A stretch of DNA of 64,000 nucleotides from Bacteroidia bacterium (GTDB lineage Bacteria; Bacteroidota; Bacteroidia; JACCXN01). The stretch is taken from assembly GCA_046299555.1 (NCBI GenBank), contig JBKBHS010000001.1:1056009-1120008 (forward strand). Direction: 5' to 3'. Under the pieces are notes generated by a model. That model was not told where the DNA came from, did no database searches, and saw only the letters and a program-made list of their open reading frames with translations. The position numbers and the translations under genes were made by a program. Below are positions 6,829-59,895 of the stretch, one piece after another. Positions within the stretch are counted from its first letter, which is position 1; the number at the start of each line of letters is the position of its first letter.

Positions 6829-6897
6829 TTTACACGGGGTTTGTGCAAAATTAAAATTGCATTTTTTCCTAAAGGCTAAGTAGTTGTTAAGATTTCT

Positions 6898-7323
6898 TTA
6901 GCTGTTTGAATAGAGCCCCATTTTATTCCCTTCAGAATCTAGAAAATATGCAAAGTAACCGGTATTGTTATCAATTAAAGTTTTAGCAATATAAACTTTG
7001 CCGTCTTCAGTAGAGTTTTTAATCAATGTTTTTTTTAATAAAACTTTACCACCATTTTGTTCTACTCGTTGTAAAATGTCATCCATTCCACTATCGGCAT
7101 TAAAAAATAATATTCCTCCTAAATTGTTTTCAGGAAAGTCTTTTACTTCTACCAGTGCACCAGTTATTTCAAAATTATTTTCGCTGGTGTTTTTAAATAT
7201 GGCATGGGGAACACCTCTGAATTCTTCGTATATAAAATCTACCCGTAACACTTTGGTATAAAATTTTACTGCGCGTTTAAAGTCTTTTACAGGAATTTCG
7301 AACCAGCGTATGAGTTTGGCCAT
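6898..7323 (-). CDS. VOC (glyoxalase/bleomycin-resistance fold) family protein
   Basis: 141 aa. N-terminal beta-alpha-beta-beta-beta module pattern (WFEIPVKDFKRAVKFYTKVL). Confidence 0.45.
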   Translation of the reverse strand: MAKLIRWFEIPVKDFKRAVKFYTKVLRVDFIYEEFRGVPHAIFKNTSENNFEITGALVEVKDFPENNLGGILFFNADSGMDDILQRVEQNGGKVLLKKTLIKNSTEDGKVYIAKTLIDNNTGYFAYFLDSEGNKMGLYSNS

Positions 7324-7338
7324 AGGTGGAAAAGAAGA

Positions 7339-9060: not shown

Positions 9061-9065
9061 AATTT

Positions 9066-11351
9066 TTAATGCATTAAGGTTATATGTCCGCTTTTAATGT
9101 CTTTAGTACCATTCATCCATTCTACATCCAATAAATAAAAATATACGCCATCGGTAACGCTTTCATTTTTATAGGTTCCATCCCAATTACCTTCTAATCC
9201 TTGCCATTGGTAAATTTCTTCCCCCCAGCGATTGTAAATTCTACAAACAATATCTTTTACTCTAACTCCTTTAATCTCAAAAACATCATTTACATTATCT
9301 CCATTAGGTGTAAATACATTGGGAATAAAAATCATTAAATAATCATGTACTTTAATAAATTCATAAATAGCTGTGTCTCTACATCCATAATTGTTTAAAG
9401 CAATGAGTGTTACGGTATATTCACCCGGTAAATTATAAATGGTTGATGGGTTTGTATCGGTAGAGGTATTATTGTTTCCGAAATCCCAATAATAATTATC
9501 GGCACTAATGCTATTATTAACAAAATTTACTTGAAGTGGAATTTGACCACTTGCCGGATTGGGCGTAAACGAAGCATCTATATTATTTACGTATATGGAA
9601 TAATAGGCAGTATCGCTACCACAGCTATTGCTTGCAATTAAATAATAATTTCCGGCAGCATTTACAGTATATGTATTTGAAATATTGATGCTTCCATTCC
9701 AAGTAAATGTGCCGTTCCCGATTGCAGTTAAAGTGGTTGATTCGCCCGGACATAAAGTATCTCGACCTATGTTTATTATATTAGCATTTGGAACAGAATC
9801 TTGAGTTATGGTAATACTTGCAGTATCTAAGCCACAATTATTAGAACCTATTACAGTGTAAGTTCCCGCTGTATTTATTGTAATACTATTAGAATTATTT
9901 CCAGTGTTCCAAGTATATGAATTAGCTCCGCTTGCGGTCAGGGTAGCTGTTTGATTGCCACAAATACTAGTTTGAGAAGCATTTATACTAACATTAGGTA
10001 ATGGATTTACTGTTATAGTTACAGGAGATGAAGTAGCACTACCACAATTATTAGAGGCAGTAACAGAATAATTACCTGCCGTACTTACATAAATTGATGT
10101 ACTTGTACTTCCATTTGACCATACATAACTATTCCCTCCTGACGCAGTTAGTAAAACCGAATCACCTTGGCATATAGTTGTATTACCCGTTATACTTATA
10201 TTTGCCGAAGGTAGAGAATCAATTATAATTTGTTGGCTAAGTGTATCAGAGTTACATGCATCACTAATGATAACCGTATATAACCCTGATGTTAAAACAT
10301 TGATAGATGCTGTTTGAGCACCCGTATTCCACGTATATGAAGTCCCACCACTTGCAGTTATGGTAGCAGTTTGGCCTTGACAAATAGTATCATTAGGAGT
10401 TACTGAAATAGTTGCATTAAGCGAATTTTGAATAGTTATTTGAAGTGTATCTTTTATACTATCGTTGCAGGTGTAGGCAGTAAAATATAAATTAAATGTT
10501 CCAACATCATTTTGTCCTATAACATATTGTACTGTATCATTATTATTTTGTAAAAATGTGCCATCTCCGCCACTCCATAAATAGGAACTTGCATTACCTC
10601 CGGTTAAGGTGCCAACCAATGTTAGAGTATCACCAACACAATAGGGTGCTGCTGTTGTATTAATTGTGTTTGCATTTAAAGGAACTACAGGAGCTTGACA
10701 ACCAAAGTTAACATACGTTGCATTCCCTGCCCAATCAAATATCACAGTAGAACCATCAGCATTGGTAGCACTTGGAATTCCTGATTGATTTACTAAAAGA
10801 GCTCTATCGTATGTAACTGCATCTGTACAACCTGCTCCAAAACTCATAGAAAGTGTTCTTAATCCGGTTCCGAAATTGGCAAAGTGCCCCGAAAAATTTC
10901 CCGGACATTGAAAAATTATATACATGGTATCTGCCAGGTTAGCAAATGAATTACCAACGGTACAGAAATCGGTTGATGTTATAAAAATAACATCAGCACC
11001 GGCTGGTAATATTCCCCCGGTAGGCTCAATTAAAAAACCACAACCTTGTATGGTACTGTTTAATGCAGCTGTATGTGCAGCTGTGGTAGCATTTTGGCAG
11101 ATTCCTTGCCAACTATTATTTGGCCAATTAACAGTTAAATTTGAAAGATTTAAAGGATTAGGACCTACTTTGAAACGAACCATTTCATTTTTTCCTTCAC
11201 AACTACAGGTAGGCGAATTTGCATTGGTACAACTACCTCCAGTAATACAGGCATCTACCAATATGCTTTCAATTTCAAAGCAAGTAGTTGGAATTTGTGC
11301 AAATAAGGCAAACTGAGTGCAAATGAATATCAGCGATAAAAATTTTTTCAT
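9066..11351 (-). CDS. Large surface adhesin with tandem SprB-like Ig repeats and gliding-motility/T9SS type-B C-terminal domain (CHU_C)
   Basis: Signal peptide. Five tandem ~72-aa repeats each carrying the C.G....L.ASGG.SY.W..G.....V..AG.Y.V...N.CG motif, then a PKD-like domain. The C-terminus FIPNVFTPNGDNVNDVFEI...NRWGEEIY...GVYFY matches the type-B sorting domain. Confidence 0.75.
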   Translation of the reverse strand: MKKFLSLIFICTQFALFAQIPTTCFEIESILVDACITGGSCTNANSPTCSCEGKNEMVRFKVGPNPLNLSNLTVNWPNNSWQGICQNATTAAHTAALNSTIQGCGFLIEPTGGILPAGADVIFITSTDFCTVGNSFANLADTMYIIFQCPGNFSGHFANFGTGLRTLSMSFGAGCTDAVTYDRALLVNQSGIPSATNADGSTVIFDWAGNATYVNFGCQAPVVPLNANTINTTAAPYCVGDTLTLVGTLTGGNASSYLWSGGDGTFLQNNNDTVQYVIGQNDVGTFNLYFTAYTCNDSIKDTLQITIQNSLNATISVTPNDTICQGQTATITASGGTSYTWNTGAQTASINVLTSGLYTVIISDACNSDTLSQQIIIDSLPSANISITGNTTICQGDSVLLTASGGNSYVWSNGSTSTSIYVSTAGNYSVTASNNCGSATSSPVTITVNPLPNVSINASQTSICGNQTATLTASGANSYTWNTGNNSNSITINTAGTYTVIGSNNCGLDTASITITQDSVPNANIINIGRDTLCPGESTTLTAIGNGTFTWNGSINISNTYTVNAAGNYYLIASNSCGSDTAYYSIYVNNIDASFTPNPASGQIPLQVNFVNNSISADNYYWDFGNNNTSTDTNPSTIYNLPGEYTVTLIALNNYGCRDTAIYEFIKVHDYLMIFIPNVFTPNGDNVNDVFEIKGVRVKDIVCRIYNRWGEEIYQWQGLEGNWDGTYKNESVTDGVYFYLLDVEWMNGTKDIKSGHITLMH

Positions 11352-11515
11352 AGAAAGTTATTTTAAAACTAAATTAGAAATTCAAAATTTCTTAATTGCT
11401 TCATTTTTATTATATTTTTGTGAAGTGTAGGTAAATTTCGCCCAAGCTAAGTTTTTAAAAGATGAATAAATTAAAACTACCTATTTGTTTTGTTAGGGCA
11501 ATTGTTTTAGATAGC

Positions 11516-11523
11516 TATCTTTG
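11516..11523 (+). promoter_or_regulatory. Bacteroidota-type sigma-A -7 box (TATCTTTG) upstream of guaA
   Basis: Matches the TAnnTTTG consensus 19 bp upstream of the guaA ATG. Upstream TTG candidates at 11490-11492 and 11502-11504 could serve as the -33 element. Confidence 0.3.
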
Positions 11524-11541
11524 TGTTTTAATTCCTCAAAA

Positions 11542-13062
11542 ATGATTTTAATTATTGATTTTGGTTCACAATACACGCAGTTAATTGCTCGTAGAGTTAG
11601 AGAACTTAATGTTTATTGCGAGATACATCCCTATAACCATATTCCTGAAATTCATTCCGGAATTAAAGGGGTAATTTTATCCGGTAGCCCGTATTCTGTT
11701 AGAAATCCGGATGCTCCAAGGCCTGATTTAAATTTATTTCGAAATAAATTGCCATTATTAGGTATTTGTTACGGTGCACAATTAATTGCAGATATTAGTG
11801 GTGGAGAAGTGATGCGTTCTGAAACGCGAGAATATGGCCGTGCTCACTTAGATTTTGTAAACGACAAGCATGCTCTATTTAAAGGTGTAAGTCAAAATTC
11901 ACAGGTGTGGATGAGTCATGGAGATACAATTAAAGTAATTCCTGACAATTTTGAAATTATTGCCAGTACACATGATGTAAAAGTGGCTGCTTATCATATA
12001 AAAGATGAAAATACTTATGGAATTCAATTTCACCCTGAAGTATATCATTCTACCGAAGGAACAAAAATTTTGAAAAACTTTGTAGTTGATATATGTGGTT
12101 GCAAACAAGACTGGACTCCTGCATCGTTTATAGAAACAACTGTTAATGACTTAAAACAAAAAATTGGAAATGATAAAGTGGTTTTGGGATTATCAGGCGG
12201 TGTAGATTCGAGTGTTGCGGCCATGTTGTTACACAAGGCAATTGGTAAAAATTTGTATTGCATATTTGTGGATAATGGCTTATTGCGTAAAAATGAATTT
12301 GAAAATGTATTACATTCTTACCAAGATATGGGATTGAATGTAAAAGGTGTAGATGCTAAAAATCGTTTTTATAAAGAACTTGCCGGGAAAACCGATCCGG
12401 AAGAAAAAAGAAAAATAATCGGTCGCGTATTTATCGAAGTATTTGACGAAGAAGCACATCGTATTGAAGATGTTAAGTGGTTGGCGCAAGGAACCATTTA
12501 TCCGGATGTAATAGAATCGGTTTCAGTAAAAGGGCCATCAGCAACCATTAAATCACATCACAATGTGGGTGGATTACCTGATTTTATGAAATTGCAAGTA
12601 GTTGAACCTTTACGTTTGTTGTTTAAAGATGAAGTAAGAAGAGTTGGTAAAGCATTACAAATTCCTGATAATATTTTAAATCGTCATCCTTTCCCAGGGC
12701 CTGGTTTAGCAATAAGAATTTTAGGAGAGATAACTGCCGAAAAAGTTGCTCTGTTACAAGAAGTTGATTATATATTTATAGAAGGGCTTAAAAAAGCCGG
12801 CTTATACAATCAAGTATGGCAAGCAGGTGCCATATTATTACCGGTGCAATCGGTAGGTGTAATGGGTGATGAAAGAACATATGAAAATGCAGTTGCTTTA
12901 AGAGCTGTAACTTCTACTGATGGTATGACAGCAGACTGGTGTCATTTGCCTTATGAGTTTTTAGGAAAAATTTCGAATGAAATTATCAATAAAGTACGTG
13001 GTGTAAACCGTGTGGTGTATGATATTAGCTCCAAACCACCTGCAACCATAGAATGGGAATAG
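11542..13062 (+). CDS. guaA: GMP synthase (glutamine-hydrolysing)
   Basis: GATase-1 domain ([28 protein letters not shown]), PP-loop SGGVDSSV and the C-terminal dimerisation domain. ATG at 11542 is preferred over the upstream TTG at 11521 given in the ORF track. Confidence 0.9.
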
Positions 13063-13083
13063 TTTTTGTTAGATAATTGAATT

Positions 13084-14910
13084 ATGATTAGAAATATAGT
13101 TTTGATTATTTGTTTTATCCTTTCATTTCTTGTCGTTACTGCTCAGGAAAATACACCTATTCAGGTAATCAATGGCAAAAAGTATTATATCTATAAAGTT
13201 GAATCAAAAAACACCTTGTATTCTATTTCAAAACGTTTTAATGTAGAGCAGGAAACTATCATAAATGAAAATCCGGAAATAAAAGAAGGTTTAAAACCCG
13301 GCCAGGAATTAAAAATACCTGTTGCAGTTGCTTCAAAAGAAGTTGAAAAAACTCCCTTAAATACCAAAGAAAATTTTACCATACACAAAGTAGAGCAGGG
13401 GCAAACCTTGTATGCCATATCAAAATTGTATGATGTAAAAGTTGAAGAAATTTCAGCCTTAAATCCACAAACAGAGCAAGGATTAAAACCCGGTATGGAA
13501 TTAAAAATTCCTACTAAAAAACTTGAGAAGCAAGCCATACCTGTTCAAAATTTGCAACCAACAACAAAAGAAAGTAAAAATACAGTTACCCATAAAGTTC
13601 AGAAAGGTGAAACACTTTACTCCATTTCTAAACAGTATGATGTAAGCCAGGAAGATATTCTGAAAGCCAATAATGATATGCCAAATGGATTAAGAGTGGA
13701 TGATGAAATTGTAATTCCTGTTGCAACATCGAATCTTAAGCCGCAAAAAGCTCAGCAAGACACTATCTATAACTATGTTAAGCAAAAACTAAATCATGAA
13801 ACAGCTCAGGATGATGAGGTGAAGCTAAATGATAATGAATTTGTTGTGGCCCTAATGTTGCCATTTTTTACTTATGAAAATAAGGTTTTCGAGCAAAATT
13901 TAAAACCCAATCAAAAAAATGAAGTGATTGCAAAATCATTGGTGGCGCTTCAGTTTTACAATGGTTTTTTAATGGCTGTTGATTCCATGATTCAAAAAGA
14001 TTTTAAAGTAAAAGTATATGTTTACGACACTGCCAATGATTCCTCAACAATAGAAAAAATATTTAAAAAAGAAGAATCGTATCAATTCGATTTAATTGTA
14101 GGGCCATTATATGCCAATGGCTTTAATGTTGCAGCAAAGTTTGCCAAAGAAAGAAAAATACCAATTGTATCGCCTTTTGTCCAAACAACATCAATTTTAA
14201 GAAATAATGTATATACTAACAAAGTTACTCCATCTCAATCTGTTTTAATGCAGGAAACAGCCGGTTTTATTGCAGCTAATTATGCTTCTGAAAATGTAAT
14301 AGTGCTTACACATAATAACTTAAAAGATAAATCATTGCTAAATACTTTTGTTACAACTTACAGAAATAAAACCAACAATCCTTTAAAAGAATTGAATTAT
14401 TCGGTAAACGGTATTGCAGGAATCAGTAATTTATTACACCCATCAAAGAAAAATATCATTGTTATACCATCAAACGAACAATCAGTAGTAACTGATATCA
14501 TTTCAAAAATTTATTTCTTAAATAAAGAAAATATCATACTTGTTGGAACTGAAGCCTGGCAAGCTTTTGAAAATATTGATATGGAATATATTAATAAGCT
14601 TCAATTACACTGGGCTACCTATTCTTATATAGATTTTGAATCAGATAAAGTTAAAGATTGGATAAGTAAATTTCGCTCTAAATTTGCTACTGAGCCTGAT
14701 AATTATGCATTCCAAGCAAACGATTTAGCATGGTATTATTTTACCGCATTAAATAAAAATGGAATGACCTATCCAGCCAATATTCAAAATGTTCAATGGA
14801 AGGGGATGGCTGGTGGTTTTGAATTTGAAAAAACAGAAGATGGCGGTTTCGAAAATAAAAGTGTTTCAATCTTAAAAATTCAGGATTATATTCCGGTTAA
14901 GGCCAACTAA
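13084..14910 (+). CDS. LysM-repeat protein (3 LysM domains) fused to a periplasmic-binding-protein-like domain
   Basis: Signal peptide. Three LysM repeats (H/YKV..G.TLY.ISK.Y.V..E.I...N..-GLKPG.ELKIP) are followed by a ~390-aa domain with PBP type-1 topology. Confidence 0.75.
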   Translation: MIRNIVLIICFILSFLVVTAQENTPIQVINGKKYYIYKVESKNTLYSISKRFNVEQETIINENPEIKEGLKPGQELKIPVAVASKEVEKTPLNTKENFTIHKVEQGQTLYAISKLYDVKVEEISALNPQTEQGLKPGMELKIPTKKLEKQAIPVQNLQPTTKESKNTVTHKVQKGETLYSISKQYDVSQEDILKANNDMPNGLRVDDEIVIPVATSNLKPQKAQQDTIYNYVKQKLNHETAQDDEVKLNDNEFVVALMLPFFTYENKVFEQNLKPNQKNEVIAKSLVALQFYNGFLMAVDSMIQKDFKVKVYVYDTANDSSTIEKIFKKEESYQFDLIVGPLYANGFNVAAKFAKERKIPIVSPFVQTTSILRNNVYTNKVTPSQSVLMQETAGFIAANYASENVIVLTHNNLKDKSLLNTFVTTYRNKTNNPLKELNYSVNGIAGISNLLHPSKKNIIVIPSNEQSVVTDIISKIYFLNKENIILVGTEAWQAFENIDMEYINKLQLHWATYSYIDFESDKVKDWISKFRSKFATEPDNYAFQANDLAWYYFTALNKNGMTYPANIQNVQWKGMAGGFEFEKTEDGGFENKSVSILKIQDYIPVKAN

Positions 14911-14923: not shown

Positions 14924-15817
14924 ATGTTTACTAAAGATAGCGCTACCGAATTTTTTATCAAACTGCAAAATGAAATTTGTTATTCTTTAGAACAAGTTGA
15001 CGGCAAAGCAAAATTTCATGAAGATATTTGGGAAAGAGAAGGAGGAGGAGGGGGAAGAACGCGCGTAATGCAAAATGGAAATGTGATTGAAAAAGGAGGA
15101 GTAAATTTTTCTGCCGTTTATGGTAAGCTTCCTGAAAATATAAAAAAAGCACTACAGGTTAATGAAGAAGATTTTTTTGCGACAGGTGTTTCTATTGTAA
15201 TGCATCCTGAAAATCCTTTTGTGCCAATTATTCACATGAATGTTCGCTATTTTGAATTGAGCGACAAAACACGTTGGTTTGGAGGAGGTATTGATTTAAC
15301 ACCGCATTATATTAATACAGAACAAGCAAAATATTTTCATCAGCAATTAAAAAACACTTGTGATAAATTTGACCCGGATTATTACCCTAAATTTAAAAAG
15401 TGGGCAGATGATTATTTCTTTATAAAACATAGAGGTGAGGCAAGAGGTATTGGAGGAATCTTTTTCGATCGATTATCGGATAATTCTACAAAAACTATTG
15501 AAGAAATTTTTGAATTTGTTAAAGCGGTAGGTGAAACATTTGTACCAACCTATTGCCATTTAATTGAATGGAATAAAAAAACTCCTTATACACAGCAGCA
15601 TAAAGACTGGCAAATGATACGTAGAGGCCGTTATGTTGAATTTAATTTAGTGTATGACAAAGGAACTAAATTTGGATTAGACACCAATGGCCGCATAGAA
15701 TCTATTTTGATGAGTTTGCCTCTTCAAGCAGGATGGCCTTATAATTTTATCCCGGAACCCCAATCAGAAGAAGAATTTACCACCAAACTACTTAAAAATC
15801 CGACTAATTGGATTTAA
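14924..15817 (+). CDS. hemF: Oxygen-dependent coproporphyrinogen-III oxidase
   Basis: HemF signature GGGGGRTRVMQNG, HPENPFVPIIHMNVRYFE and GGGIDLTP blocks. Confidence 0.85.
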   Translation: MFTKDSATEFFIKLQNEICYSLEQVDGKAKFHEDIWEREGGGGGRTRVMQNGNVIEKGGVNFSAVYGKLPENIKKALQVNEEDFFATGVSIVMHPENPFVPIIHMNVRYFELSDKTRWFGGGIDLTPHYINTEQAKYFHQQLKNTCDKFDPDYYPKFKKWADDYFFIKHRGEARGIGGIFFDRLSDNSTKTIEEIFEFVKAVGETFVPTYCHLIEWNKKTPYTQQHKDWQMIRRGRYVEFNLVYDKGTKFGLDTNGRIESILMSLPLQAGWPYNFIPEPQSEEEFTTKLLKNPTNWI

Positions 15818-15947: not shown

Positions 15948-18900
15948 ATGAGGGCATTAGTAAATAAAGTAATTATAACATTGCTTGTTAATTTTGCATT
16001 AATGTCAATATTGAATAATCGACTTAGTGCTCAAAATGGTTGTCCTAATGCCGATTTTTCTCAAAATAATTTTAATAATTGGCAAGGCTTTACTGGAAAC
16101 TACAATAATCCTGCACAAAATACAGGTATTGTTAATGGTCGTCATACCATTATGACGGGTCCCGGTACCGATCCTAACTCTTGTGGTGGATTACCATTAG
16201 TTCCTCCCGGTTCAACATTTTCTGCAAGATTAGGAAATGCAAATTATGGTGCAGAAGCAGAGCGTTTAAGATATACCTTAACTGTTGACCCTTCAAATGT
16301 ATTTTTTACATATAAATATGCGGTTGTATTTGAACAAGCAGGGCATTCACCGGCTGATCAGCCTAAATTTGATTTAAGAATTTTAAATAGCGCTAATCAA
16401 GTAATAAACCCAACTTGTGGCCAATATTCGGTTTATGAAGGTCAGCCCGGTTCTAATTATGTAAATTGTAGTTATTATCGTTATCAAAATTGGCGCACCG
16501 TTGGTTTAGATTTATCTCCTTACATGGGGCAAACAATTACCATTGAATTTACAACTTACGACTGTGCTTTAGGAGGACATTTCGGATATGCTTATGTGGC
16601 AGCTTCTTGTGGTCCATTAGAATTAGATGTGTCCTATTGCCCAGGATCAAATAGTGCAATATTAGAAGCTCCCGCAGGTTTTGCTACATATAATTGGTCG
16701 ACAGGTCAAACTGGTCAGACGATAACTATTAATAATCCAAATGTAGGTCAAAATGTAACCGTTACAATGACATCAGTTGTTAGCCCATCATGTCAAGTAA
16801 CGCTGAATACATTATTACAACCTACTACTGTAGATGCACATTTTAACTTTACAAGCGGATGTGTTTATGATACATTTAATTTTACGGATTCAACTATTGT
16901 AAATAATTCATCTGTTTCTACATGGTCTTGGAATTTTGGTGATCCGGGTTCAGGAGCAAATAATACTTCTAATTTGCAAAATCCTACACACGTATTTAGT
17001 ACAGCCGGAACTTTTAATGTAACTCTCATCGCATTGGTTCCTGCAGGCTGTGGTGATACTATTACCAGACAAGTTGTTGTGCAGCCACAACCTACTCCTG
17101 CATTTAATGCACCTGCTGTATGTTTTGGTGTGGCTGCTAATTTTACTGATCAATCTATTTCCAACACTTCTAACCCCATCAGTTCGTGGAATTGGGATTT
17201 TGGAGACGGAAACACATCAACCGCTCAAAACCCTTCAAATACATATACTTCTCCCGGTAATTATAATGTTACATTAATCGTTTCTAATGATTTAGGTTGC
17301 TTAGATACCTTGCAACAGCAAATAACTGTTTATAATGTTCCTCAAGCTGACTTTAATTTTACATCTCAATGCGATGGAACAGCAATTCCATTTACTGATG
17401 CCAGTACAACTCCGGCTCCAACAACCATTAATTCATGGCAATGGAATTTTGGAAACAATACCAGCACATCTCAAAACCCAACTAATGTTTTTCCAAGTAA
17501 TGGAACATTTAATGTACAACTTATTGTGGGGGCAAGTACCGGTTGCTACGATACAATAACCAAGCCTGTACGTGTTTACGCCAATCCATCGGCAGGTTTT
17601 TCTTATACGGATGTATGTTTGGGTAATGTGATGAGTTTAACGGATTCTTCGAGTATTGCAACCACAGATACGATAGTTTCATATTTATGGGCATTTGGCG
17701 ATGGTTCACCTACAGACAATAATCAAAATACAACACATCTTTATAATAATGCGGGAGCCTATACGGTAACGTTAATAGTAACGGGCACGGGAGGATGTTC
17801 AGATGTACAAACACATACGGTAAATGTATATGATGCCCCGCAGGCTAATTTTACAACGAGCAATGTATGTTTAAACACGGCAGCAAGTTTTACAAATACC
17901 ACTGTGAGTCCACAACATGGAGGCATGGGTAATTTTTCGTGGAATTTTGGAGATGGCTCGCCTTTGAATACAAATGACTGGAATGCTAATCATCAATATA
18001 CTACACATGGCACTTATCAGGTAACATTAATTACACAAAATTCAAATTTAGGCTGTGCTGATACCATTACATTACCAATTATAATTCATCCCATGCCTGT
18101 ACCAAACTTTACCTTTGTAAATCAATGTCAGGCAGATGCTTACACATTTACAAATACTTCAAGTATAGCGCAAGGAACGATAGCCTCCTATAATTGGAAT
18201 TTTGGGGATAATAGTACAAGCACTGCGAGTTCACCAAGTCATACCTATAGTTCATCGGGTAATTACAGTGTAACGTTAACAGCAACGAGTGATAGTGGAT
18301 GTGTAGCAAGTATAACACAACAAGTTACGGTATATCCGATGCCGAATGCAGATTTTACGGTTAATGAAGTATGCCATAATAGTCCCACAGAGTTTACAAG
18401 TACATCGAGTGTATTACCACCGGATAATATTACCACCTATCAATGGTTATTTGGAGATAATAATAGTTCAAGCCAACAAAATCCACAGCACACTTATAGC
18501 AGTGCAGGCTTATACAATGCTACCTTGATAGTAACCACGAATCACAATTGCAGCGATACGATAGTTTTACCTGTAACAGTAAATCCGAATCCGGTAGTAG
18601 ATTTTGTGGCCAATAAAATAAACGGATGCTCACCATTGTGTATAGATTTTACACAACAGGCAACAATATCATCAGGAGTTAACAGTCAATATATTTGGAA
18701 TTTTGGCGATGGAAATAATGGCAATGGAGCAGTAGTATCAAATTGTTATACCAATACAACTATCTACAATCCGATTAGCAGAGATATTACGTTAACTGTA
18801 GTATCGGATAAGGGTTGTAGCACAACGGTAACCAAGCCGAATTATATAACAGTGTATCCTTTGCCTGTAGCGGAGTTTACGCCTATACCGAAGGAGACGA

Positions 18901-19388
18901 GTATCTTAGATCCAATTATATATTTTGAAAATCAATCTTTAGGTTCGAATGCGTGGTTGTGGCATTTTGGAGAGGCGAATAATACGGGAGATACCATAAG
19001 TCAAAACCCATATCATACATACAAGGATACTGGGATTTATCAAGTTACATTAATATCCACGAATCAATGGGGATGTAAAGATACAGTAGTACATGATGTA
19101 GTAATAATAGGAGATTTTGCGTATTTTATACCGAATACCTTTACACCGAATGGGGATGGGGTAAATGATAGTTTTTATGGCAAGGGTTATGGTATAAAAG
19201 AGATCGTATTTCAGGTGTTTGACCGCTGGGGGTTGTTATTATTTGAAACAACCGATGTAAACGAAGGCTGGAAAGGTACTTATCAAGGAGAAAACTGTCA
19301 ACAAGATGTATATGTTTATCAAGTAAGGATTGTGGATATATTTGATAGAAAACATCAGTATAGAGGGCATGTTAATTTGATTCGATAA
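15948..19388 (+). CDS. Giant PKD-repeat surface protein A with gliding-motility/T9SS type-B C-terminal domain
   Basis: Signal peptide, a ~230-aa Cys-rich N-domain, nine PKD-like modules (each with a W.FGDG motif) and a C-terminus FIPNTFTPNGDGVNDSFYGKGYGIKE...DRWG...GVYVYQV matching the type-B sorting domain. Its 3' 1.85 kb is shared with the next gene. Confidence 0.8.
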   Translation: MRALVNKVIITLLVNFALMSILNNRLSAQNGCPNADFSQNNFNNWQGFTGNYNNPAQNTGIVNGRHTIMTGPGTDPNSCGGLPLVPPGSTFSARLGNANYGAEAERLRYTLTVDPSNVFFTYKYAVVFEQAGHSPADQPKFDLRILNSANQVINPTCGQYSVYEGQPGSNYVNCSYYRYQNWRTVGLDLSPYMGQTITIEFTTYDCALGGHFGYAYVAASCGPLELDVSYCPGSNSAILEAPAGFATYNWSTGQTGQTITINNPNVGQNVTVTMTSVVSPSCQVTLNTLLQPTTVDAHFNFTSGCVYDTFNFTDSTIVNNSSVSTWSWNFGDPGSGANNTSNLQNPTHVFSTAGTFNVTLIALVPAGCGDTITRQVVVQPQPTPAFNAPAVCFGVAANFTDQSISNTSNPISSWNWDFGDGNTSTAQNPSNTYTSPGNYNVTLIVSNDLGCLDTLQQQITVYNVPQADFNFTSQCDGTAIPFTDASTTPAPTTINSWQWNFGNNTSTSQNPTNVFPSNGTFNVQLIVGASTGCYDTITKPVRVYANPSAGFSYTDVCLGNVMSLTDSSSIATTDTIVSYLWAFGDGSPTDNNQNTTHLYNNAGAYTVTLIVTGTGGCSDVQTHTVNVYDAPQANFTTSNVCLNTAASFTNTTVSPQHGGMGNFSWNFGDGSPLNTNDWNANHQYTTHGTYQVTLITQNSNLGCADTITLPIIIHPMPVPNFTFVNQCQADAYTFTNTSSIAQGTIASYNWNFGDNSTSTASSPSHTYSSSGNYSVTLTATSDSGCVASITQQVTVYPMPNADFTVNEVCHNSPTEFTSTSSVLPPDNITTYQWLFGDNNSSSQQNPQHTYSSAGLYNATLIVTTNHNCSDTIVLPVTVNPNPVVDFVANKINGCSPLCIDFTQQATISSGVNSQYIWNFGDGNNGNGAVVSNCYTNTTIYNPISRDITLTVVSDKGCSTTVTKPNYITVYPLPVAEFTPIPKETSILDPIIYFENQSLGSNAWLWHFGEANNTGDTISQNPYHTYKDTGIYQVTLISTNQWGCKDTVVHDVVIIGDFAYFIPNTFTPNGDGVNDSFYGKGYGIKEIVFQVFDRWGLLLFETTDVNEGWKGTYQGENCQQDVYVYQVRIVDIFDRKHQYRGHVNLIR
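17543..19258 (+). repeat. Copy 1 of a 1716-bp segment that is 100% identical to 21678-23393
   Basis: Base-by-base comparison at a constant offset of 4135 bp was checked at several internal points. The ORF track also shows identical translations, including identical spurious antisense ORFs. Confidence 0.9.
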
Positions 19389-19401
19389 TTATACAATACC
19401 T

Positions 19402-22400
19402 ATGAAAGCATTAATAAAAATTATATTTATTTTATACATAATTCTACCATATACATCTGCTTACTCTCAAAATTCTACAAAAGGAAAAGATTTTTGGTTT
19501 GGTTTTCTATCTAATTTTTATGGCCCGGGTGGTTCACCCAATATGATTTATATTACTTCTGACAGAAATGTAAATGGAAATATATCTGTTCCCGGTATTG
19601 GAGTTAATATTCCGTTTAGTGTTACAGCCAATGGAGTTTTTTCTGTAGATATGGCAGCTCAATTGGTAGAACCTCCCCAAAATGACGGAATACATAATTT
19701 GGCCATACATATTACTGCATGTGATACTATTACGGTTTATGCTCAGAATGCAGGTTCAGCTTCAAATGATGCTACGATTATTTATCCAACCGAATCGCTT
19801 GGTGATGATTATAGAATTTTAAATATTAATGGATGGCCGGGAGATTGGGGGGATGAAGCTTTGATAGTAGCTACAGAAAATAATACACAAATAGAAATAA
19901 TCCCTTCAGTTGCAACTTCGGGTGGTTTGCCTGCCGGTGTTCCAACTGTTATCACATTAAATCAGGGACAAATGTATCAATTAAGTCATATTCCTGGTGG
20001 TAATAACTTATCCGGTACTATAATTAGAGGAGTAAATTCAGGAGTTTGTAAGCCATTTGCGGTTTTTTCAGGAAGTATATGTATAAATATAGGCGGATGC
20101 GTAGCTTGTGATCATCTGTATGAACAATTATTACCTGTATCAGCATGGGGGCTTGAATATATTTTAGTGCCCTTGAGCAATAAATCTCAAACTTATTATA
20201 GAATAATTGCATTAAATAATGGAACCAGCGTTTCCATAAACGGTGGAGCACCCATTAACTTAAATGCAGGTCAAGTTCATCAATTTTCAAATAATGTAGC
20301 CAGCTATGTACAATCCAATCAACCTATTCAGATAATGCAATATGCGCAAGGGAATGATTGTGACGGTGTTGGAGATCCTTTTCAAATTTTAATGTTTCCA
20401 ATTGAGCAAACTATAGATAATATAACTTTTAATGCATTTGTTACACCTTTAATTACTCAATATTGGGTAAATATTGTAGCTCAAACAAGTGCAGTTGCTA
20501 ATGTGGTATTAGATGGAAATAATATTGCAGCCCAGTTTAATCCCGTACCTTCAAATCCGGCATTTAGTTTTGCAAGAGTAAATATAACTCAAGGCAATCA
20601 TACACTTACATGTCCAGATGGTGTATTGGCTTATATTTACGGTTGGGGAGGTTATGAATCTTTTGGATATTGTGCCGGAGCCTCATTGCGCGATTTAACA
20701 AATGATTTTACTATAACATCGGTACCAACTTGTGCAGGAAATTCAATTACGTTCAGTGCAATAAGCGATCCAAATACAACTAATTATATATGGAATTTTG
20801 GAGATAATACAACTGCAAATGGTCTAACCGTTAGTCATACTTATTCTAATCCTGGTACCTATCAAGTTACTTTAACCAAAGTAAATAATATAGGATGTGA
20901 TAAAATCATACAGAAAAATGTATTAATAATGGATCCTCCTGTACAAATAGAACAAAATGATACTGTAATTTGTATCGGTGCAACGGTTAATTTGAATATT
21001 TTTTCAAATGATAGTATTCCAATTTATACACCAACAGGATGTGGAGATAGTTTATTAACATATATTTCATATCCTTATGATAGCATTGTATGGAGTACTG
21101 GACAAAATACATTTAATATTTCGATAACTCCAACTCAAGATACCACAATATATGTTTATGCATACGAAGGTAATTGTATAGGTGTTGACTCAATTCGAAT
21201 AGCCGTTAAAGACATACACGCACAATTCAGTGTTCAAGATAATTGTTTTGGGGTGAGTAGTCAATTTAATAATACTTCATTTATTAATAATCCTCATCAA
21301 ATAGATTCATATTTATGGAATTTTGGTGATGGAAATAATACAACGGCTCAAAATCCAACTCATACTTATGGTTCACCCGGAAATTATAATGTAACATTAA
21401 TTGTTTCCACTATCGAAGGATGTAGCGATAGTATTACACAAAGTATTAATGTTTATGATGCTCCTGTTGCAGATTTTGAAACAGATTCAGTTTGCTTAGG
21501 AGTAGCAATATTATTTAATAATCTTACAAGTAATCCTTTACATGGTAATATAGGAAACTACTGGTGGGATTTTGGAGACGGATCTCCAATTAATACTTCC
21601 AATTGGTCGCCTAATTATATGTATAATCAATCAGGCGTTTTTAATGTTTCTTTAGTTGTTCAAAATTCACAATTAAATTGCTACGATACAATAACCAAGC
21701 CTGTACGTGTTTACGCCAATCCATCGGCAGGTTTTTCTTATACGGATGTATGTTTGGGTAATGTGATGAGTTTAACGGATTCTTCGAGTATTGCAACCAC
21801 AGATACGATAGTTTCATATTTATGGGCATTTGGCGATGGTTCACCTACAGACAATAATCAAAATACAACACATCTTTATAATAATGCGGGAGCCTATACG
21901 GTAACGTTAATAGTAACGGGCACGGGAGGATGTTCAGATGTACAAACACATACGGTAAATGTATATGATGCCCCGCAGGCTAATTTTACAACGAGCAATG
22001 TATGTTTAAACACGGCAGCAAGTTTTACAAATACCACTGTGAGTCCACAACATGGAGGCATGGGTAATTTTTCGTGGAATTTTGGAGATGGCTCGCCTTT
22101 GAATACAAATGACTGGAATGCTAATCATCAATATACTACACATGGCACTTATCAGGTAACATTAATTACACAAAATTCAAATTTAGGCTGTGCTGATACC
22201 ATTACATTACCAATTATAATTCATCCCATGCCTGTACCAAACTTTACCTTTGTAAATCAATGTCAGGCAGATGCTTACACATTTACAAATACTTCAAGTA
22301 TAGCGCAAGGAACGATAGCCTCCTATAATTGGAATTTTGGGGATAATAGTACAAGCACTGCGAGTTCACCAAGTCATACCTATAGTTCATCGGGTAATTA

Positions 22401-23523
22401 CAGTGTAACGTTAACAGCAACGAGTGATAGTGGATGTGTAGCAAGTATAACACAACAAGTTACGGTATATCCGATGCCGAATGCAGATTTTACGGTTAAT
22501 GAAGTATGCCATAATAGTCCCACAGAGTTTACAAGTACATCGAGTGTATTACCACCGGATAATATTACCACCTATCAATGGTTATTTGGAGATAATAATA
22601 GTTCAAGCCAACAAAATCCACAGCACACTTATAGCAGTGCAGGCTTATACAATGCTACCTTGATAGTAACCACGAATCACAATTGCAGCGATACGATAGT
22701 TTTACCTGTAACAGTAAATCCGAATCCGGTAGTAGATTTTGTGGCCAATAAAATAAACGGATGCTCACCATTGTGTATAGATTTTACACAACAGGCAACA
22801 ATATCATCAGGAGTTAACAGTCAATATATTTGGAATTTTGGCGATGGAAATAATGGCAATGGAGCAGTAGTATCAAATTGTTATACCAATACAACTATCT
22901 ACAATCCGATTAGCAGAGATATTACGTTAACTGTAGTATCGGATAAGGGTTGTAGCACAACGGTAACCAAGCCGAATTATATAACAGTGTATCCTTTGCC
23001 TGTAGCGGAGTTTACGCCTATACCGAAGGAGACGAGTATCTTAGATCCAATTATATATTTTGAAAATCAATCTTTAGGTTCGAATGCGTGGTTGTGGCAT
23101 TTTGGAGAGGCGAATAATACGGGAGATACCATAAGTCAAAACCCATATCATACATACAAGGATACTGGGATTTATCAAGTTACATTAATATCCACGAATC
23201 AATGGGGATGTAAAGATACAGTAGTACATGATGTAGTAATAATAGGAGATTTTGCGTATTTTATACCGAATACCTTTACACCGAATGGGGATGGGGTAAA
23301 TGATAGTTTTTATGGCAAGGGTTATGGTATAAAAGAGATCGTATTTCAGGTGTTTGACCGCTGGGGGTTGTTATTATTTGAAACAACCGATGTGAACGAA
23401 GGCTGGAAAGGCACCTATCAAGGAGAAAACTGTCAGCAGGATGTGTATGTTTATCAGGTAAGAATTGTAGATATAAATAATAAAAAACATCAGTTTAGAG
23501 GGCATGTTAATTTGATTCGATAA
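19402..23523 (+). CDS. Giant PKD-repeat surface protein B with IgGFc-binding-like N-domain and type-B T9SS C-terminal domain
   Basis: Signal peptide. The ~430-aa N-domain begins KGKDFWFGFLSNF, which resembles the IgGFc-binding N-terminal domain family. PKD modules follow. The 3' ~620 codons are identical to gene A except the last ~40. Confidence 0.8.
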   Translation: MKALIKIIFILYIILPYTSAYSQNSTKGKDFWFGFLSNFYGPGGSPNMIYITSDRNVNGNISVPGIGVNIPFSVTANGVFSVDMAAQLVEPPQNDGIHNLAIHITACDTITVYAQNAGSASNDATIIYPTESLGDDYRILNINGWPGDWGDEALIVATENNTQIEIIPSVATSGGLPAGVPTVITLNQGQMYQLSHIPGGNNLSGTIIRGVNSGVCKPFAVFSGSICINIGGCVACDHLYEQLLPVSAWGLEYILVPLSNKSQTYYRIIALNNGTSVSINGGAPINLNAGQVHQFSNNVASYVQSNQPIQIMQYAQGNDCDGVGDPFQILMFPIEQTIDNITFNAFVTPLITQYWVNIVAQTSAVANVVLDGNNIAAQFNPVPSNPAFSFARVNITQGNHTLTCPDGVLAYIYGWGGYESFGYCAGASLRDLTNDFTITSVPTCAGNSITFSAISDPNTTNYIWNFGDNTTANGLTVSHTYSNPGTYQVTLTKVNNIGCDKIIQKNVLIMDPPVQIEQNDTVICIGATVNLNIFSNDSIPIYTPTGCGDSLLTYISYPYDSIVWSTGQNTFNISITPTQDTTIYVYAYEGNCIGVDSIRIAVKDIHAQFSVQDNCFGVSSQFNNTSFINNPHQIDSYLWNFGDGNNTTAQNPTHTYGSPGNYNVTLIVSTIEGCSDSITQSINVYDAPVADFETDSVCLGVAILFNNLTSNPLHGNIGNYWWDFGDGSPINTSNWSPNYMYNQSGVFNVSLVVQNSQLNCYDTITKPVRVYANPSAGFSYTDVCLGNVMSLTDSSSIATTDTIVSYLWAFGDGSPTDNNQNTTHLYNNAGAYTVTLIVTGTGGCSDVQTHTVNVYDAPQANFTTSNVCLNTAASFTNTTVSPQHGGMGNFSWNFGDGSPLNTNDWNANHQYTTHGTYQVTLITQNSNLGCADTITLPIIIHPMPVPNFTFVNQCQADAYTFTNTSSIAQGTIASYNWNFGDNSTSTASSPSHTYSSSGNYSVTLTATSDSGCVASITQQVTVYPMPNADFTVNEVCHNSPTEFTSTSSVLPPDNITTYQWLFGDNNSSSQQNPQHTYSSAGLYNATLIVTTNHNCSDTIVLPVTVNPNPVVDFVANKINGCSPLCIDFTQQATISSGVNSQYIWNFGDGNNGNGAVVSNCYTNTTIYNPISRDITLTVVSDKGCSTTVTKPNYITVYPLPVAEFTPIPKETSILDPIIYFENQSLGSNAWLWHFGEANNTGDTISQNPYHTYKDTGIYQVTLISTNQWGCKDTVVHDVVIIGDFAYFIPNTFTPNGDGVNDSFYGKGYGIKEIVFQVFDRWGLLLFETTDVNEGWKGTYQGENCQQDVYVYQVRIVDINNKKHQFRGHVNLIR
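21678..23393 (+). repeat. Copy 2 of the 1716-bp identical segment
   Basis: See copy 1. Identity starts inside a PKD module at ...CYDTITKPVRVYANPSAGF and ends 130 bp before the stop codon. Confidence 0.9.
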
Positions 23524-23668
23524 AATTTTTTATCCATAAAAGCATTCTGCTAAATAATTTCATCGAATCAAATTAAATAATAGTCGAATTGGCAACCAAA
23601 TGTTTATTTTAACGTTAATTAATATAATCTTTTAAATTACTTTCGTAAATTATATGTAAAACATTGTA

Positions 23669-26600
23669 GTGATGCCAATTAACAGAATTTTATTTCTTTT
23701 TATAATTTGTATTTTAAATCCAAGTTTTCTATCAGCTCAAAATACATGTCCTAATTCCGATTTTTCACAAGGCAATTTTAATAATTGGAATGGTTTTACA
23801 GGTAGTTATACTAATCCTGCTCAAACTCCCGGTATAGTTCCGGGCAGGCACACTATAATGAATGCTTCTGCATTAGATCCAAATACATGCAATGGCTTAA
23901 ATGTATTACCTCCCGGATCTTCATTTTCGGCACGTTTGGGTAATGCAGGTACAAATGCACAAGGAGAGCAATTAAGATATACTTTAGCAGTTACCAACCA
24001 AAACGCTTTATTTGTATATAAATACGCAGTTGTATTAGAAAATCCATCCGGTCATGCCCCTAATGAACAACCTGAATTTAGAATGAGAATTTTAAACCAG
24101 TCAGGACAACAAATTGGAGGTAATTGCGGGCAATATACGGTTTATGGAGGTCAACCGGGGCAAAATTTTCAAGTTTGTGGAGGAGTTACTTGGTTACCCT
24201 GGACAATAGTTTCTGTAAACTTATCGCCCTATATCGGGCAAAATGTTACAATAGAATTTACAACAAAAGACTGTAGCTTAGGTGCACATTTTGGATACGC
24301 ATACGTTGCTGCCGAATGTATGCCTTTAATGATTGATATTGAATATTGCCCGGGTGATAATTCTGTAGTATTAACTGCTCCTCCTGGCTTTCAATCTTAC
24401 CAATGGAGTCCGGGGGGAGCTACAACACAATCTATAACCATAAATAATCCGGTTATTGGTTCTACCTATTCTTGTACATTAACTTCGTTTAGTAATCAAG
24501 GTTCTTGTCAGGTTACCTTAAGTGTTCAGATAGTACCAACAGTAGTTACGGCAGGTTTTTCTTTTTCACCGGCTTGTCAGGGAGTGCCAATACAATTTAC
24601 AGATACTTCAACAGTAGCAAATGGAACACTAGGTTCCTGGCTTTGGGATTTTGGAGATGGAAACACTTCAACAGCACAAAACCCAACACATACCTATTCG
24701 AATAGTGGCACTTATAATGTAACCCTTATTGCATTTTCTACAGCGCAATGTAGCGATACAATTACTCAGCAAATTAATATTTTCCCAATTCCTGATGCTC
24801 AATTTACTTATGCTCCTGCTTGTCCCGGAGATGCTGTTCAATTTACTAATAACTCTACCGGTAATACAACTTTAACCTACAATTGGAATTTTGGAGATCC
24901 TGCTTCCGGTGCAAATAATACTTCAACTGATACAAATCCAAGTCATATATTTAATACAGCCGGAACGTATAATGTAACTTTGGTTGCAACTAATACCAAT
25001 GGATGTGTTGATACTCTTGTTCAACAAGTCCAAGTTAATTCAGGTGCTACGCCAAATTTTACATTTACAAGTCAATGTCAGGGAACAGCAATAAACTTTA
25101 ATAATACAAGTACTATAGCTCCTCCTAATACCATTACAAATTACAGTTGGAATTTTGGAGGAGGTAATACCGCAACCGGAGCTACAGCAAGTCATGTATT
25201 TAATACTCCCGGAATGAATAATGTTACATTAACGGTAACAACATCTTTAGGATGTAGCGATTCTATTACCATACCGGTGAGGGTATATGCTAATCCTGTT
25301 GCTAATTTTACACATCAAGATGTGTGTTTTGGTAATGTAATGAGTTTTACTAATACCTCTACAGTTACTAATACAGATACTATTACAAGTTATTTATGGG
25401 CATTTGGAAATGGTAATACATCTACAGCAACCAACCCAACTCAAAACTATGCAGCACCAGGCAGTTATAATGTTACTTTGATTGCCACTAGTACCGGTGG
25501 ATGTTCAAATGTTGTTACTCATCAGGTTAATGTATATGATTTGCCAGTTGCCGACTTTATATTTGATAATAAATGTGAAAATATTCAAGCTACATTTACA
25601 AACATTACACAACAGCCACAATCCGGTAATGTTACGTCATGGTCATGGAATTATGGAGATGGTTCACCATTAGATGTTACCAATTGGAATGGAGTACATA
25701 CTTATACAACAACAGGTACATATACTGTAACTTTAATTACTAATAATACTATCGGCTGTTCAGATACTGTAAGTCATCAAATATTAGTACATCCAACTCC
25801 TGTTGCAGATTTTAGTTTTACCAATAAATGTTTAGTAGATTCAGTTGTGTTTACAGATCTTTCAACCGGTGGAATCGCATCATATAACTGGAATTTTGGA
25901 GATGGAAATAATAGTACGCAATCTAATCCAACCCATATCTATTCAAATGCTGGATTTTATACCGTTACATTATCAGTAACAAGCGATAGCGGTTGTACAC
26001 ATTTTACAACTAAGCAAGTTGAAATATACCCAATGCCAAATGCTGATTTTTCTGCATTAAACGTTTGTCAGTATGATAGTATGAATTTTACTTCGTTGGC
26101 AACGGTTCAACCTCCAAGTAATATTGCAAATTGGAATTGGGATTTTGGAAATACAATAGGAACATCTACTCAAACCAATCCAGCTTATTTCTATGGTGCA
26201 CCTGGAACTTACAATGTAACCTTAATAGTAAATACCAATAATAATTGTAAAGATACAGTTACAAAAACAGTTGTAGTAAACCCAATGCCGAATGTAAATT
26301 TTGAAGCGGATTTATTAAGTTCCTGTTCTCCATTATGTGTTAATTTAACAGACTTATCATCAGTAGTTTCAGGTAACAATACTTCTTTTGTGTGGAATTT
26401 TGGTGATGGAACAACAGGAAACGGAGTAACTACTAACCATTGCTATACCAACGATGGTGCTACTGAAAATGTATATAGAACAATAACGCTAACTGTTACT
26501 ACCGATAGTGGTTGTGTTGGCATGCACACCAAAAACAATTATTTAACAATTTATCCTACCCCGATTGCTGAATTTTCATCATCTCCACAACCCACTACCA

Positions 26601-27079
26601 TTAGAAATCCAATTATATATTTTAATAATGAAACAATTGGAGGATATTCTTATGTGTGGAATTTTGGTGATAATACAGCAACTTCTACTGAAACTAGTCC
26701 AACTCATACTTATGTAATGGTTGGTCAGTATGATGTTACATTAATATCTACCAATCAATGGGGATGTTCTGATACAATTATTCATACAGTATATATTGAT
26801 GATGATTTTGCGTTTTATATACCAAATGCCTTTACTCCAAATGGTGATGGAATTAATGATATATTTTCAGGCAAAGGCTATGGTATTAAAGAGTATGTAA
26901 TGTATGTTTTTGATCGGTGGGGTGAAAAACTTTATGAAACCACTGACTTAAATAAAGGGTGGGATGGGACCTTTAAAGGAGCGGAAGCTCAACAAGATGT
27001 ATATGTTTATCGTGTAGATATTATAGATATTCACGGAGAAAAACACAAATATAAAGGACACTTTACATTAGTAAGATAA
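23669..27079 (+). CDS. Giant PKD-repeat surface protein C, a diverged paralog of A, with type-B T9SS C-terminal domain
   Basis: Same architecture as A. The N-domain CPNSDFSQGNFNNWNGFTGSYTNPAQTPGIVPGRHTIM...FGYAYVAAEC is colinear with A's but only partly identical. It has ~9 PKD modules and a C-terminus FYIPNAFTPNGDGINDIFSGKGYGIKE...DRWGEKLYE. Confidence 0.8.
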   Translation: MMPINRILFLFIICILNPSFLSAQNTCPNSDFSQGNFNNWNGFTGSYTNPAQTPGIVPGRHTIMNASALDPNTCNGLNVLPPGSSFSARLGNAGTNAQGEQLRYTLAVTNQNALFVYKYAVVLENPSGHAPNEQPEFRMRILNQSGQQIGGNCGQYTVYGGQPGQNFQVCGGVTWLPWTIVSVNLSPYIGQNVTIEFTTKDCSLGAHFGYAYVAAECMPLMIDIEYCPGDNSVVLTAPPGFQSYQWSPGGATTQSITINNPVIGSTYSCTLTSFSNQGSCQVTLSVQIVPTVVTAGFSFSPACQGVPIQFTDTSTVANGTLGSWLWDFGDGNTSTAQNPTHTYSNSGTYNVTLIAFSTAQCSDTITQQINIFPIPDAQFTYAPACPGDAVQFTNNSTGNTTLTYNWNFGDPASGANNTSTDTNPSHIFNTAGTYNVTLVATNTNGCVDTLVQQVQVNSGATPNFTFTSQCQGTAINFNNTSTIAPPNTITNYSWNFGGGNTATGATASHVFNTPGMNNVTLTVTTSLGCSDSITIPVRVYANPVANFTHQDVCFGNVMSFTNTSTVTNTDTITSYLWAFGNGNTSTATNPTQNYAAPGSYNVTLIATSTGGCSNVVTHQVNVYDLPVADFIFDNKCENIQATFTNITQQPQSGNVTSWSWNYGDGSPLDVTNWNGVHTYTTTGTYTVTLITNNTIGCSDTVSHQILVHPTPVADFSFTNKCLVDSVVFTDLSTGGIASYNWNFGDGNNSTQSNPTHIYSNAGFYTVTLSVTSDSGCTHFTTKQVEIYPMPNADFSALNVCQYDSMNFTSLATVQPPSNIANWNWDFGNTIGTSTQTNPAYFYGAPGTYNVTLIVNTNNNCKDTVTKTVVVNPMPNVNFEADLLSSCSPLCVNLTDLSSVVSGNNTSFVWNFGDGTTGNGVTTNHCYTNDGATENVYRTITLTVTTDSGCVGMHTKNNYLTIYPTPIAEFSSSPQPTTIRNPIIYFNNETIGGYSYVWNFGDNTATSTETSPTHTYVMVGQYDVTLISTNQWGCSDTIIHTVYIDDDFAFYIPNAFTPNGDGINDIFSGKGYGIKEYVMYVFDRWGEKLYETTDLNKGWDGTFKGAEAQQDVYVYRVDIIDIHGEKHKYKGHFTLVR

Positions 27080-59791: not shown

Positions 59792-59847
59792 TTATTAGTT
59801 TAAAGTCATTAACCATTAGTTAATTAATTTGTTGATTTGATGATTTT

Positions 59848-59895
59848 TTGAATTGTTGAATTGTTGAATTGTTGAATTGTTGAATTGTTGAATTT
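59848..59895 (+). repeat. Tandem octamer array (TTGAATTG) x5 perfect + 1 imperfect
   Basis: Read directly: ttgaattg repeated head-to-tail, preceded by degenerate units (ttgatttg, atgatttt). Confidence 0.9.

Follow-up and report, generated by a model that had tools for sequence, protein, structure and literature searches.

In a 64,000-nucleotide stretch of the Bacteroidia bacterium genome GCA_046299555.1 (contig JBKBHS010000001.1, positions 1,056,009 to 1,120,008; hereafter the window), we analyzed three tandem genes on the plus strand, A, B, and C, the first two of which share a long and perfect repeat. The trio is located downstream of guaA, a gene for a LysM protein, and hemF, the last of which encodes coproporphyrinogen oxidase (14924..15817, plus strand; NF003727, 403 bits) and provided the synteny anchor 5′ of A. 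Gene A (15948..19388, plus strand) is an intact open reading frame (ORF) for a protein of 1146 amino acids with a predicted signal peptide, a beta-sandwich N-domain, nine PKD modules, and a type-B sorting domain of the type IX secretion system (T9SS). Gene B (19402..23523, plus strand) is likewise an intact ORF, and its product of 1373 amino acids has an IgGFc_binding-type N-domain and three old PKD modules, followed by a copy of A modules 4 to 9 and the sorting domain. Gene C (23669..27079, plus strand; 1135-1136 amino acids) is an old full-length paralog of A (53% amino acid identity by blastp) and serves as the outgroup.

Domain content of the three proteins

The stalks of the three proteins were alike, with PKD_4 scores of 396-415 bits (396 in A), above the Pfam cutoff, and nine matching stretches per protein. 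Nine W-x-F-G motifs recurred 80-88 residues apart, the single larger gap, of 175 residues, lying between the first and second modules of B. The C-terminal ~85 residues fit the type-B sorting family, scoring 50-55 bits for CHU_C (PF13585; cutoff 27) and 57.4, 58.6, and 66.1 bits for TIGR04131 in A, B, and C, respectively (cutoff 35). Hydrophobic N-termini are visible in the surface proteins, and export through the T9SS is predicted.

It is in their N-terminal heads that the proteins differ. The exposed head of B contains the IgGFc_binding domain (19768..20643, plus strand; PF17517, residues 123-414, 251 bits, E=2e-74) that a preliminary description, made from the DNA letters, had recognized in outline. 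The N-domain common to A and C has no annotation; in an AlphaFold model (pLDDT, the predicted local distance difference test, of 78) it takes the form of a beta-sandwich, and the model for A has weak similarity to carbohydrate-binding, MAM, and adhesin folds (template modeling score of 0.36 or less). A sequence search of solved structures with the A N-domain came back empty. Collectively, A, B, and C are best explained as genes for T9SS-exported cell-surface proteins in which differing heads are carried on a PKD stalk. Nucleotide identity between A and C was 51-69% along their whole length, with third positions saturated, and our search for recent exchange between these two genes in this genome found none.

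A perfect repeat with two unlike borders

Positions 17543..19258 in A and 21678..23393 in B (both plus strand; the two copies of repeat R) are identical at 1716 of 1716 positions, at an offset of 4135 bp. This exact run, which the preliminary description had reported correctly at every position, cannot grow by a single base at either end. The coding content of R begins with the final 12 residues of PKD module 3, continues through modules 4-9, and ends halfway along the sorting domain; the earlier account of its content holds for the six modules, but it had credited R with most of the sorting domain, of which about half (43 of 86 residues) is included. The unique DNA between the copies (T1; 19259..21677, plus strand) comprises the A tail, a 13-bp spacer, and the 5′ part of B, and together with one R copy makes up the 4135 bp. 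No further R copies were present within the window, in which the only other exact direct repeats of at least 25 nucleotides were the last 28 nucleotides of A and B and a simple-sequence array near 59.8 kb.

On the 5′ side, identity sets in at 21678 in B, with a conserved Cys codon located 12 codons short of the end of a PKD module, rather than exactly at a module junction as had been described. The third module of B (21457..21714, plus strand) is consequently chimeric. Its body is closest to A module 5 (52% amino acid identity in the module matrix, against 40% or less to every other module of A, B, or C), while its last 12 residues (CYDTITKPVRVY) are the end of A module 3. At the junction B reads CAAAATTCACAATTAAA and then, from the border on, TTGCTACGAT, where A module 5 reads CAAAATTCAAATTTAGG CTGTGCTGAT; B is thus joined to the A segment out of register, at a conserved Cys-x-Asp-Thr-Ile-Thr motif. 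A and C both pass from module 3 to module 4 through a common end of the form ...PVRVYANP, and module 3 of C ends PVRVYANP. When the 5′ border was examined as a possible end of a conversion tract, homology was absent beyond the junction, and identity between A and B at the same offset was at the random level of about 25-35% upstream of R. The upstream parts had been called unrelated, which is accurate for this same-offset comparison but not for the parts as a whole, since B keeps three old, diverged PKD modules there.

The 3′ border, in contrast, lies within sequence that is homologous on both sides. The A tail (19259..19388, plus strand), consisting of the last 43 sorting-domain codons and the stop, is 89% identical to the B tail (23394..23523, plus strand), in which three residues (N, N, F) are derived and which also terminates the hybrid gene of a single-copy strain described below. 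Specifically, the tails had 14 differences in 130 bp (10.8%), distributed over 13 codons, with nine synonymous and four non-synonymous changes, and similarity between A and B stopped at the stop codons. A mosaic border in nucleotide identity is therefore present, as an abrupt switch from 0/1716 to 14/130 such as marks the edge of a conversion tract. At the divergence of the tails, finding no differences in 1716 bp has a P of about 1e-85. Moreover, the mostly synonymous pattern over the 130-bp tail argues for two functional, selected copies that have been separate for some time.

Both copies in independent sequence data

Logan provides k=31 de Bruijn contigs in which each 31-mer occurs once per accession (PMC12424806), so that a two-copy repeat must break contigs k-1 = 30 nucleotides inside its borders. 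Breaks were found at precisely these positions. Contigs coming from hemF and the 5′ part of A stopped at 17572 in SRR32875425, SRR32875429, SRR32943639, and SRR32875432 (L002, L003, L008, and L009), while those running into C began at 23364 in SRR32875425, SRR32875427, SRR32875432, and SRR31360857 (L011-L014). The piece between the copies was recovered by looking up the 52-residue product of the A tail expected from gene calling on it, exact look-ups of the full proteins A and B in the contig index having returned no match. This contig (L015) corresponds exactly to 19229-21707, has the predicted length of 2479 bp with 30 nucleotides of R at each end, and was present in eight samples. The sole genome path that uses each unique piece once is A 5′ part, R, T1, R, and tail, as in the window. 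Additionally, B was identical to an NCBI protein (P0001) labeled "MAG: Bacteroidia bacterium", that is, from a metagenome-assembled genome (MAG), on a contig of 1.70 Mb.

Three other contigs from one series (L004, L006, and L007; SRR32943635, SRR32943636, and SRR32943640) ended at exactly 16072, within the coding region of the A N-domain. The window has no repeat at that position, which suggests a co-occurring strain or a paralog that diverges there.

Gene A as the source of the shared segment

We found that A was collinear with its orthologs P0122, P0123, and P0124, at 74-83% across the full length. Identity to P0122 was 81.5% in the 5′ part, 81.6% over R, and 81.4% in the tail, and the corresponding values for P0124 were 82.7%, 75.1%, and 74.4%. 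The nearest relative of B (P0002) had 68.5% identity in the head and 38.4% over R, and the segment therefore groups with orthologs of the donor, A, and not with those of the recipient, B, as a conversion tract does. The even similarity of the A orthologs, the drop of P0002 over R, and the continuity of A from module 3 to module 4 together establish that the shared segment R belongs natively to A, its source, and that B holds the copy.

The position of A after hemF is kept in close and distant relatives, and guaA-LysM-hemF-A is an old synteny. When GTDB species genomes were scanned with hemF as the anchor, no relative above 67% emerged, from which it follows that the species has no representative there. 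JGI metagenome contigs scanned with the 5′ part of B gave nothing above 55% and no pre-conversion B. Base composition gave no sign of a foreign origin for this part of B, which is low in GC and in GC at third codon positions (GC3), like its neighbors.

Structural variants in strains and relatives

The locus proved to be polymorphic within the population. A 109.8-kb contig (L001, from SRR24079483; also L010, two samples in all) corresponds to the window minus 4135 bp, with the order A 5′ part, R, B tail, spacer, and C, and apart from this change it differed from the window by four single nucleotide polymorphisms (SNPs) in ~22.7 kb, none of them in R. Its structure is the exact product of recombination between the two R copies. 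The nearest other lineages (L100, with A at 82% amino acid identity, and L098, at 78%) had hemF, A, a spacer, and C without B, which indicates that B is a lineage-specific arrival between A and C. Thus, among the related loci compared for a chimeric B, the nearest lineages lacked the gene altogether, and L001 lacked it too and had a hybrid gene instead.

Two further relatives showed other combinations of the same parts. In L099 (SRR22388330), positions 4076-7513 encode an A ortholog (75% amino acid identity) with a C-type sorting domain over the last ~60-70 residues, followed by the C terminator and by sequence matching the region downstream of C, which in the window holds a DUF7935 gene. This gene is an independent fusion of A with C in a related lineage, in which the body of C has been lost. 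The L099 sorting domain is itself a mosaic, being C-like at RVDI, A-like at IFDKKH, and C-like again at GHFTLVR. In the distant relative L019 (JBBRYH010000003.1, a Bacteroidia MAG), the genes at 11025-14507 and 16510-19644 share the A-type 3′ 750 residues (63% amino acid and 69% nucleotide identity). The second of these, two ORFs downstream of the first, has a different Cys-rich head and nearly the same last 25 residues, so that here too a common stalk and signal are combined with a different head.

The suggestion of the preliminary description that exposed modules could be shuffled without loss of the tail for secretion and anchoring was thereby borne out, in the L001 hybrid without B, in the L099 gene with an A body and a C tail, and in the other head of L019. 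New relative to that description are the direction of transfer, with A as the source, the polymorphism within the population, and the recognition of B as a lineage-specific insertion between A and C.

Spacers and transcription signals

The spacer between A and B (19389..19401, plus strand) consists of 13 bp (TTATACAATACCT), and TTATACAAT is also found in the spacer 3′ of the A ortholog in L100. The spacer between B and C (23524..23668, plus strand) is, beginning directly at the stop codon, the positional ortholog of the spacer that separates A and C in related species, and has TTTTATC(C)ATAAAA, CTGCTAA, and AGTCGAATTGGCAACCAA in common with positions 13433-13549 of L098. A terminator scan found hairpins only 3′ of hemF and 3′ of C; the A-B spacer is thus without a terminator, and B is probably co-transcribed with A. 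A scan for sigma-70 promoters, which was not designed for Bacteroidota, gave 66 matches against 61 expected from shuffles and was uninformative.

Upstream of C, a motif with TGGCAACCA is kept in three species, at 23580-23600 in the window, 13478-13496 in L098, and 3730-3750 in L100. Its AGTCGAATTGGCAACCAA form is present in the window and L098, while in L100 the motif lies within an inverted repeat (GGTCTAAATGGCAACCATTTAGACC). This motif may be a regulatory site for C.

Origin of the present arrangement

The account that we consider likely, while leaving real room for doubt, combines a conversion of B by A with a deletion that gave rise to L001. The 3′ half of B would have been overwritten by non-reciprocal homologous recombination (gene conversion) with A as the template, a recent conversion laid over older A/B homology. 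Its tract would end at 19258/23393, in the middle of the coding region for the sorting domain, and 3′ of it the older, 89%-identical layer would persist. B would then display its own IgGFc_binding-type head on the A stalk, with nearly the sorting signal of A. Because the 5′ end of identity is also the limit of homology, the fusion junction there may predate the last homogenization.

Once formed, a perfect direct repeat would be a substrate for RecA-type recombination. Crossing-over between the R copies would remove 4135 bp, including the A tail and the B head, and leave one hybrid gene. Fusions with neighboring genes could arise likewise, with the stalk and sorting signal acting as the recombination substrate and the heads differing. 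The tails bear on the direction of this change. At the 14 sites that distinguish them, L100 matched the A tail at nine and the B tail at three, and L098 matched A at eight and B at five. Since the ortholog tails match that of A more than that of B, it is the more derived, B-type tail that ends the single gene of L001, and this favors an origin by deletion. We accordingly favor L001 as a deletion derivative, although this is not fully settled.

Several points weigh against this account. A tract ending at the limit of homology lacks homologous flanks on its 5′ side and fits a simple two-ended conversion poorly, and a pre-conversion B, with the B head and its own 3′ half, closer than 46-55% was absent from all collections searched. 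Evidence for the copy number per genome is indirect, in the form of graph topology and the contig of the source MAG. With respect to the deletion, the layout of L001 is the same as that of the outgroups L100 and L098 (A, spacer, and C), so that it could be ancestral, and it is the spacer after B, not that after A, that is orthologous to the A-C spacer of L100 and L098. Moreover, the polarization of the tails (9:3) is only of borderline significance.

The alternative that survives best, although we regard it as unlikely, takes up several of these points and proposes a recent duplicative insertion. Here, a single-copy arrangement of A 5′ part, R, tail, spacer, and C would be ancestral, and a foreign or ectopic unit of sorting-domain tail, 13 bp, and B head would have been inserted very recently, joined by homology in the sorting-domain region and by microhomology at the Cys-x-DTIT motif. 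R would have been re-copied by template switching or unequal sister exchange, and its identity would be that of a fresh duplicate, without later homogenization. In agreement with this proposal, L098 and L100 have A and C without B, and, starting at the stop codon, the A-C spacer of these two lineages has its ortholog in the B-C spacer. The four SNPs in ~22.7 kb between L001 and the window imply that the structural change was very recent in either direction, and one complex event would cover both the zero divergence of R and the 11% divergence of the tails. However, the homologous anchor is downstream of the join with which R starts, and two sister chromosomes or two template switches would be needed; such an event is rarer than deletion between perfect repeats of 1.7 kb. 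No source for the B head above 46-55% identity was present among 5.8 billion proteins and the JGI contigs, and the GC and GC3 of the B 5′ part are low, like those of the neighbors. The B tail, which would be the native one under this proposal, holds most of the derived changes (nine versus three), and the two-copy pieces were found in eight samples, against two for the single-copy contig.

A single duplication-fusion, in which the 3′ part of A was copied once onto the B head and identity reflects newness with no later conversion, appears improbable. The 5′ border does look like a non-homologous, out-of-register fusion point, as this would require. However, the copied unit would include the tail, yet the tails differ at 14 of 130 positions, in a pattern like that of purifying selection, directly beside 0 differences in 1716, and the spacers after the A and B stop codons differ. 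It is this 10.8% divergence of the tails that excludes the single event as the whole story, barring a subsequent replacement of one tail by that of a third paralog from beyond the window. The preliminary description had grouped recent gene conversion, duplication-fusion, and ongoing homogenization of tandem paralogs as candidate causes; we infer conversion, which fits the observations, and set aside a lone duplication-fusion, which does not.

We also considered, as a decidedly improbable scenario, that the 4135-bp unit is a reversible cassette, excised as a circle by recombination between the R copies and able to re-integrate at any gene with the shared stalk. If true, this would allow head swapping or on-off switching across the population, with the conserved stalk and T9SS signal as the landing pad, and the A/C fusion of L099 and the different head of L019 would be products of the same general mechanism. 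A mobile element or a site-specific excision cassette was considered and rejected: the 4135-bp unit contains the A tail, the B 5′ part, and R only, no recombinase domain was found in the ORFs examined around the locus, and the flanking repeat is 1716 bp of coding sequence and not a short repeat of the att type.

Finally, an artefact of assembly or polishing, with one true copy or with two diverged copies homogenized by consensus polishing, had been raised as a concern in the preliminary description and is effectively excluded, for although perfect repeats of 1.7 kb are classically troublesome to assemble, and although the sequence stems from a MAG and the short-read contig L001 is single-copy, both copies lie in intact ORFs with unique flanks that differ on each side, the k=31 graph branches exactly at 17543 and at 19258/23393 in several independent accessions, the inter-copy piece with R at both ends is identical in eight samples, and a diverged B copy would make a separate k-mer path, in which case the T1 contig would not end 30 nucleotides into R.

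Other features of the window

In studied flavobacteria, the gene for a type-B cargo protein often has that of a cognate PorP/SprF-like partner close by. A gene of this kind was not found within the 64-kb window, despite the presence there of four genes for type-B cargo and one for type-A cargo. The sole candidate for T9SS machinery found in the window was a PorE-like OmpA protein at 51008-53074. This TPR/PD40/OmpA protein resembles PorE of the T9SS and the CHU_0125 family, with scores below both curated cutoffs (310 and 353 bits, versus 600 and 620 bits).

Upstream of guaA, two genes for secreted proteins lie back to back on the minus strand (7339-11351). The first (7339-9060) encodes 573 amino acids with a type-A Por_Secre_tail, and the product of the second (9066-11351; 761 amino acids) combines a PKD module with a CHU_C domain of type B. 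We compared its sorting domain as a possible donor of the B tail and rejected this origin. At the site of this pair, L098 has a single gene for a 441-amino acid protein with a Por_Secre_tail, so that the neighboring surface-protein locus also varies between species. The four SNPs between L001 and the window are at 8578, 8676, 10473, and 27859; two are non-synonymous (E>D and Q>K) in the 573-amino acid protein, one is synonymous in the gene at 9066-11351, and one is an E>D change in dnaN, placing three of the four in secreted-protein genes.

The simple-sequence DNA near 59.8 kb occupies 59846-60015, in the spacer between a cardiolipin-synthase-like gene and an ornithine aminotransferase gene. 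Two arrays of 8-bp units are present, one with TTGAATTG repeated about six times and the other with about a dozen units of the CTCAATAA/CACAATAA type. A TAACTTTG motif (TAnnTTTG-like) is located 3′ of the arrays, near 60058.

Comparison with known systems

General RecA-dependent recombination brings about both the concerted evolution of tandem direct repeats and deletion between them. The present locus resembles such systems in its long perfect direct repeat, in L001 as a probable deletion product with one hybrid copy, and in the independent fusion of L099.

The closest case is that of the Porphyromonas gingivalis genes hagA, rgpA, and kgp, which encode T9SS cargo. These have identical adhesin-coding repeats within and between genes, the modules are rearranged from one strain to another, and automated assembly is defeated by the repeats (PMC5266723). 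The likeness lies in T9SS-secreted surface proteins with shared repeats. However, the P. gingivalis genes are scattered over the genome and encode sorting domains of type A together with cleaved-adhesin/DUF2436 modules, whereas those described here, from an uncultured environmental member of the Bacteroidia, stand strictly in tandem and encode PKD modules and type-B domains (TIGR04131/CHU_C). A literature search on recombination in remA/remB of Flavobacterium johnsoniae found nothing usable.

The classic mechanistic parallel is provided by babA, babB, and babC of Helicobacter pylori. These paralogous genes for outer-membrane adhesins are homologous in their 3′ regions but divergent in the exposed parts. 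Among these genes, intragenomic non-reciprocal recombination leads to chimeric genes, a changed expressed head, and gene content that varies between strains (PMC4552749). Unlike A, B, and C, the bab genes are at dispersed loci, their products are anchored by a beta-barrel and not through the T9SS, and they are subject to phase variation via CT repeats, of which none were seen here.

Neisseria pilE/pilS and Borrelia vlsE have many silent, promoter-less partial cassettes and one expression site, with changes at high frequency in the exposed part. Non-reciprocal copying between paralogous surface-protein sequences is common to these systems and to our locus. In contrast, each partner here is a complete gene, copying affects the conserved stalk and anchor, and the partners number only two or three. 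Programmed antigenic variation by cassettes was accordingly rejected for the present locus, which has three full-length genes and no other R copies in the window, and in which the exchanged part is the conserved stalk and anchor.

What is seen at this locus is a known kind of event, ordinary recombination between paralogs, and reveals no new mechanism. It does provide a clean, dated example of the evolution of T9SS surface proteins in environmental Bacteroidia, in which a shared stalk and signal recombine while the heads differ, and a single locus yields three natural outcomes: a homogenized 3′ half, a strain without one of the heads, and a fusion with a neighbor. Surface proteins can thus be present or absent at the strain level without any mobile element. 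Short-read assemblies systematically break or collapse genes of this type, rendering adhesin gene counts in MAGs unreliable.

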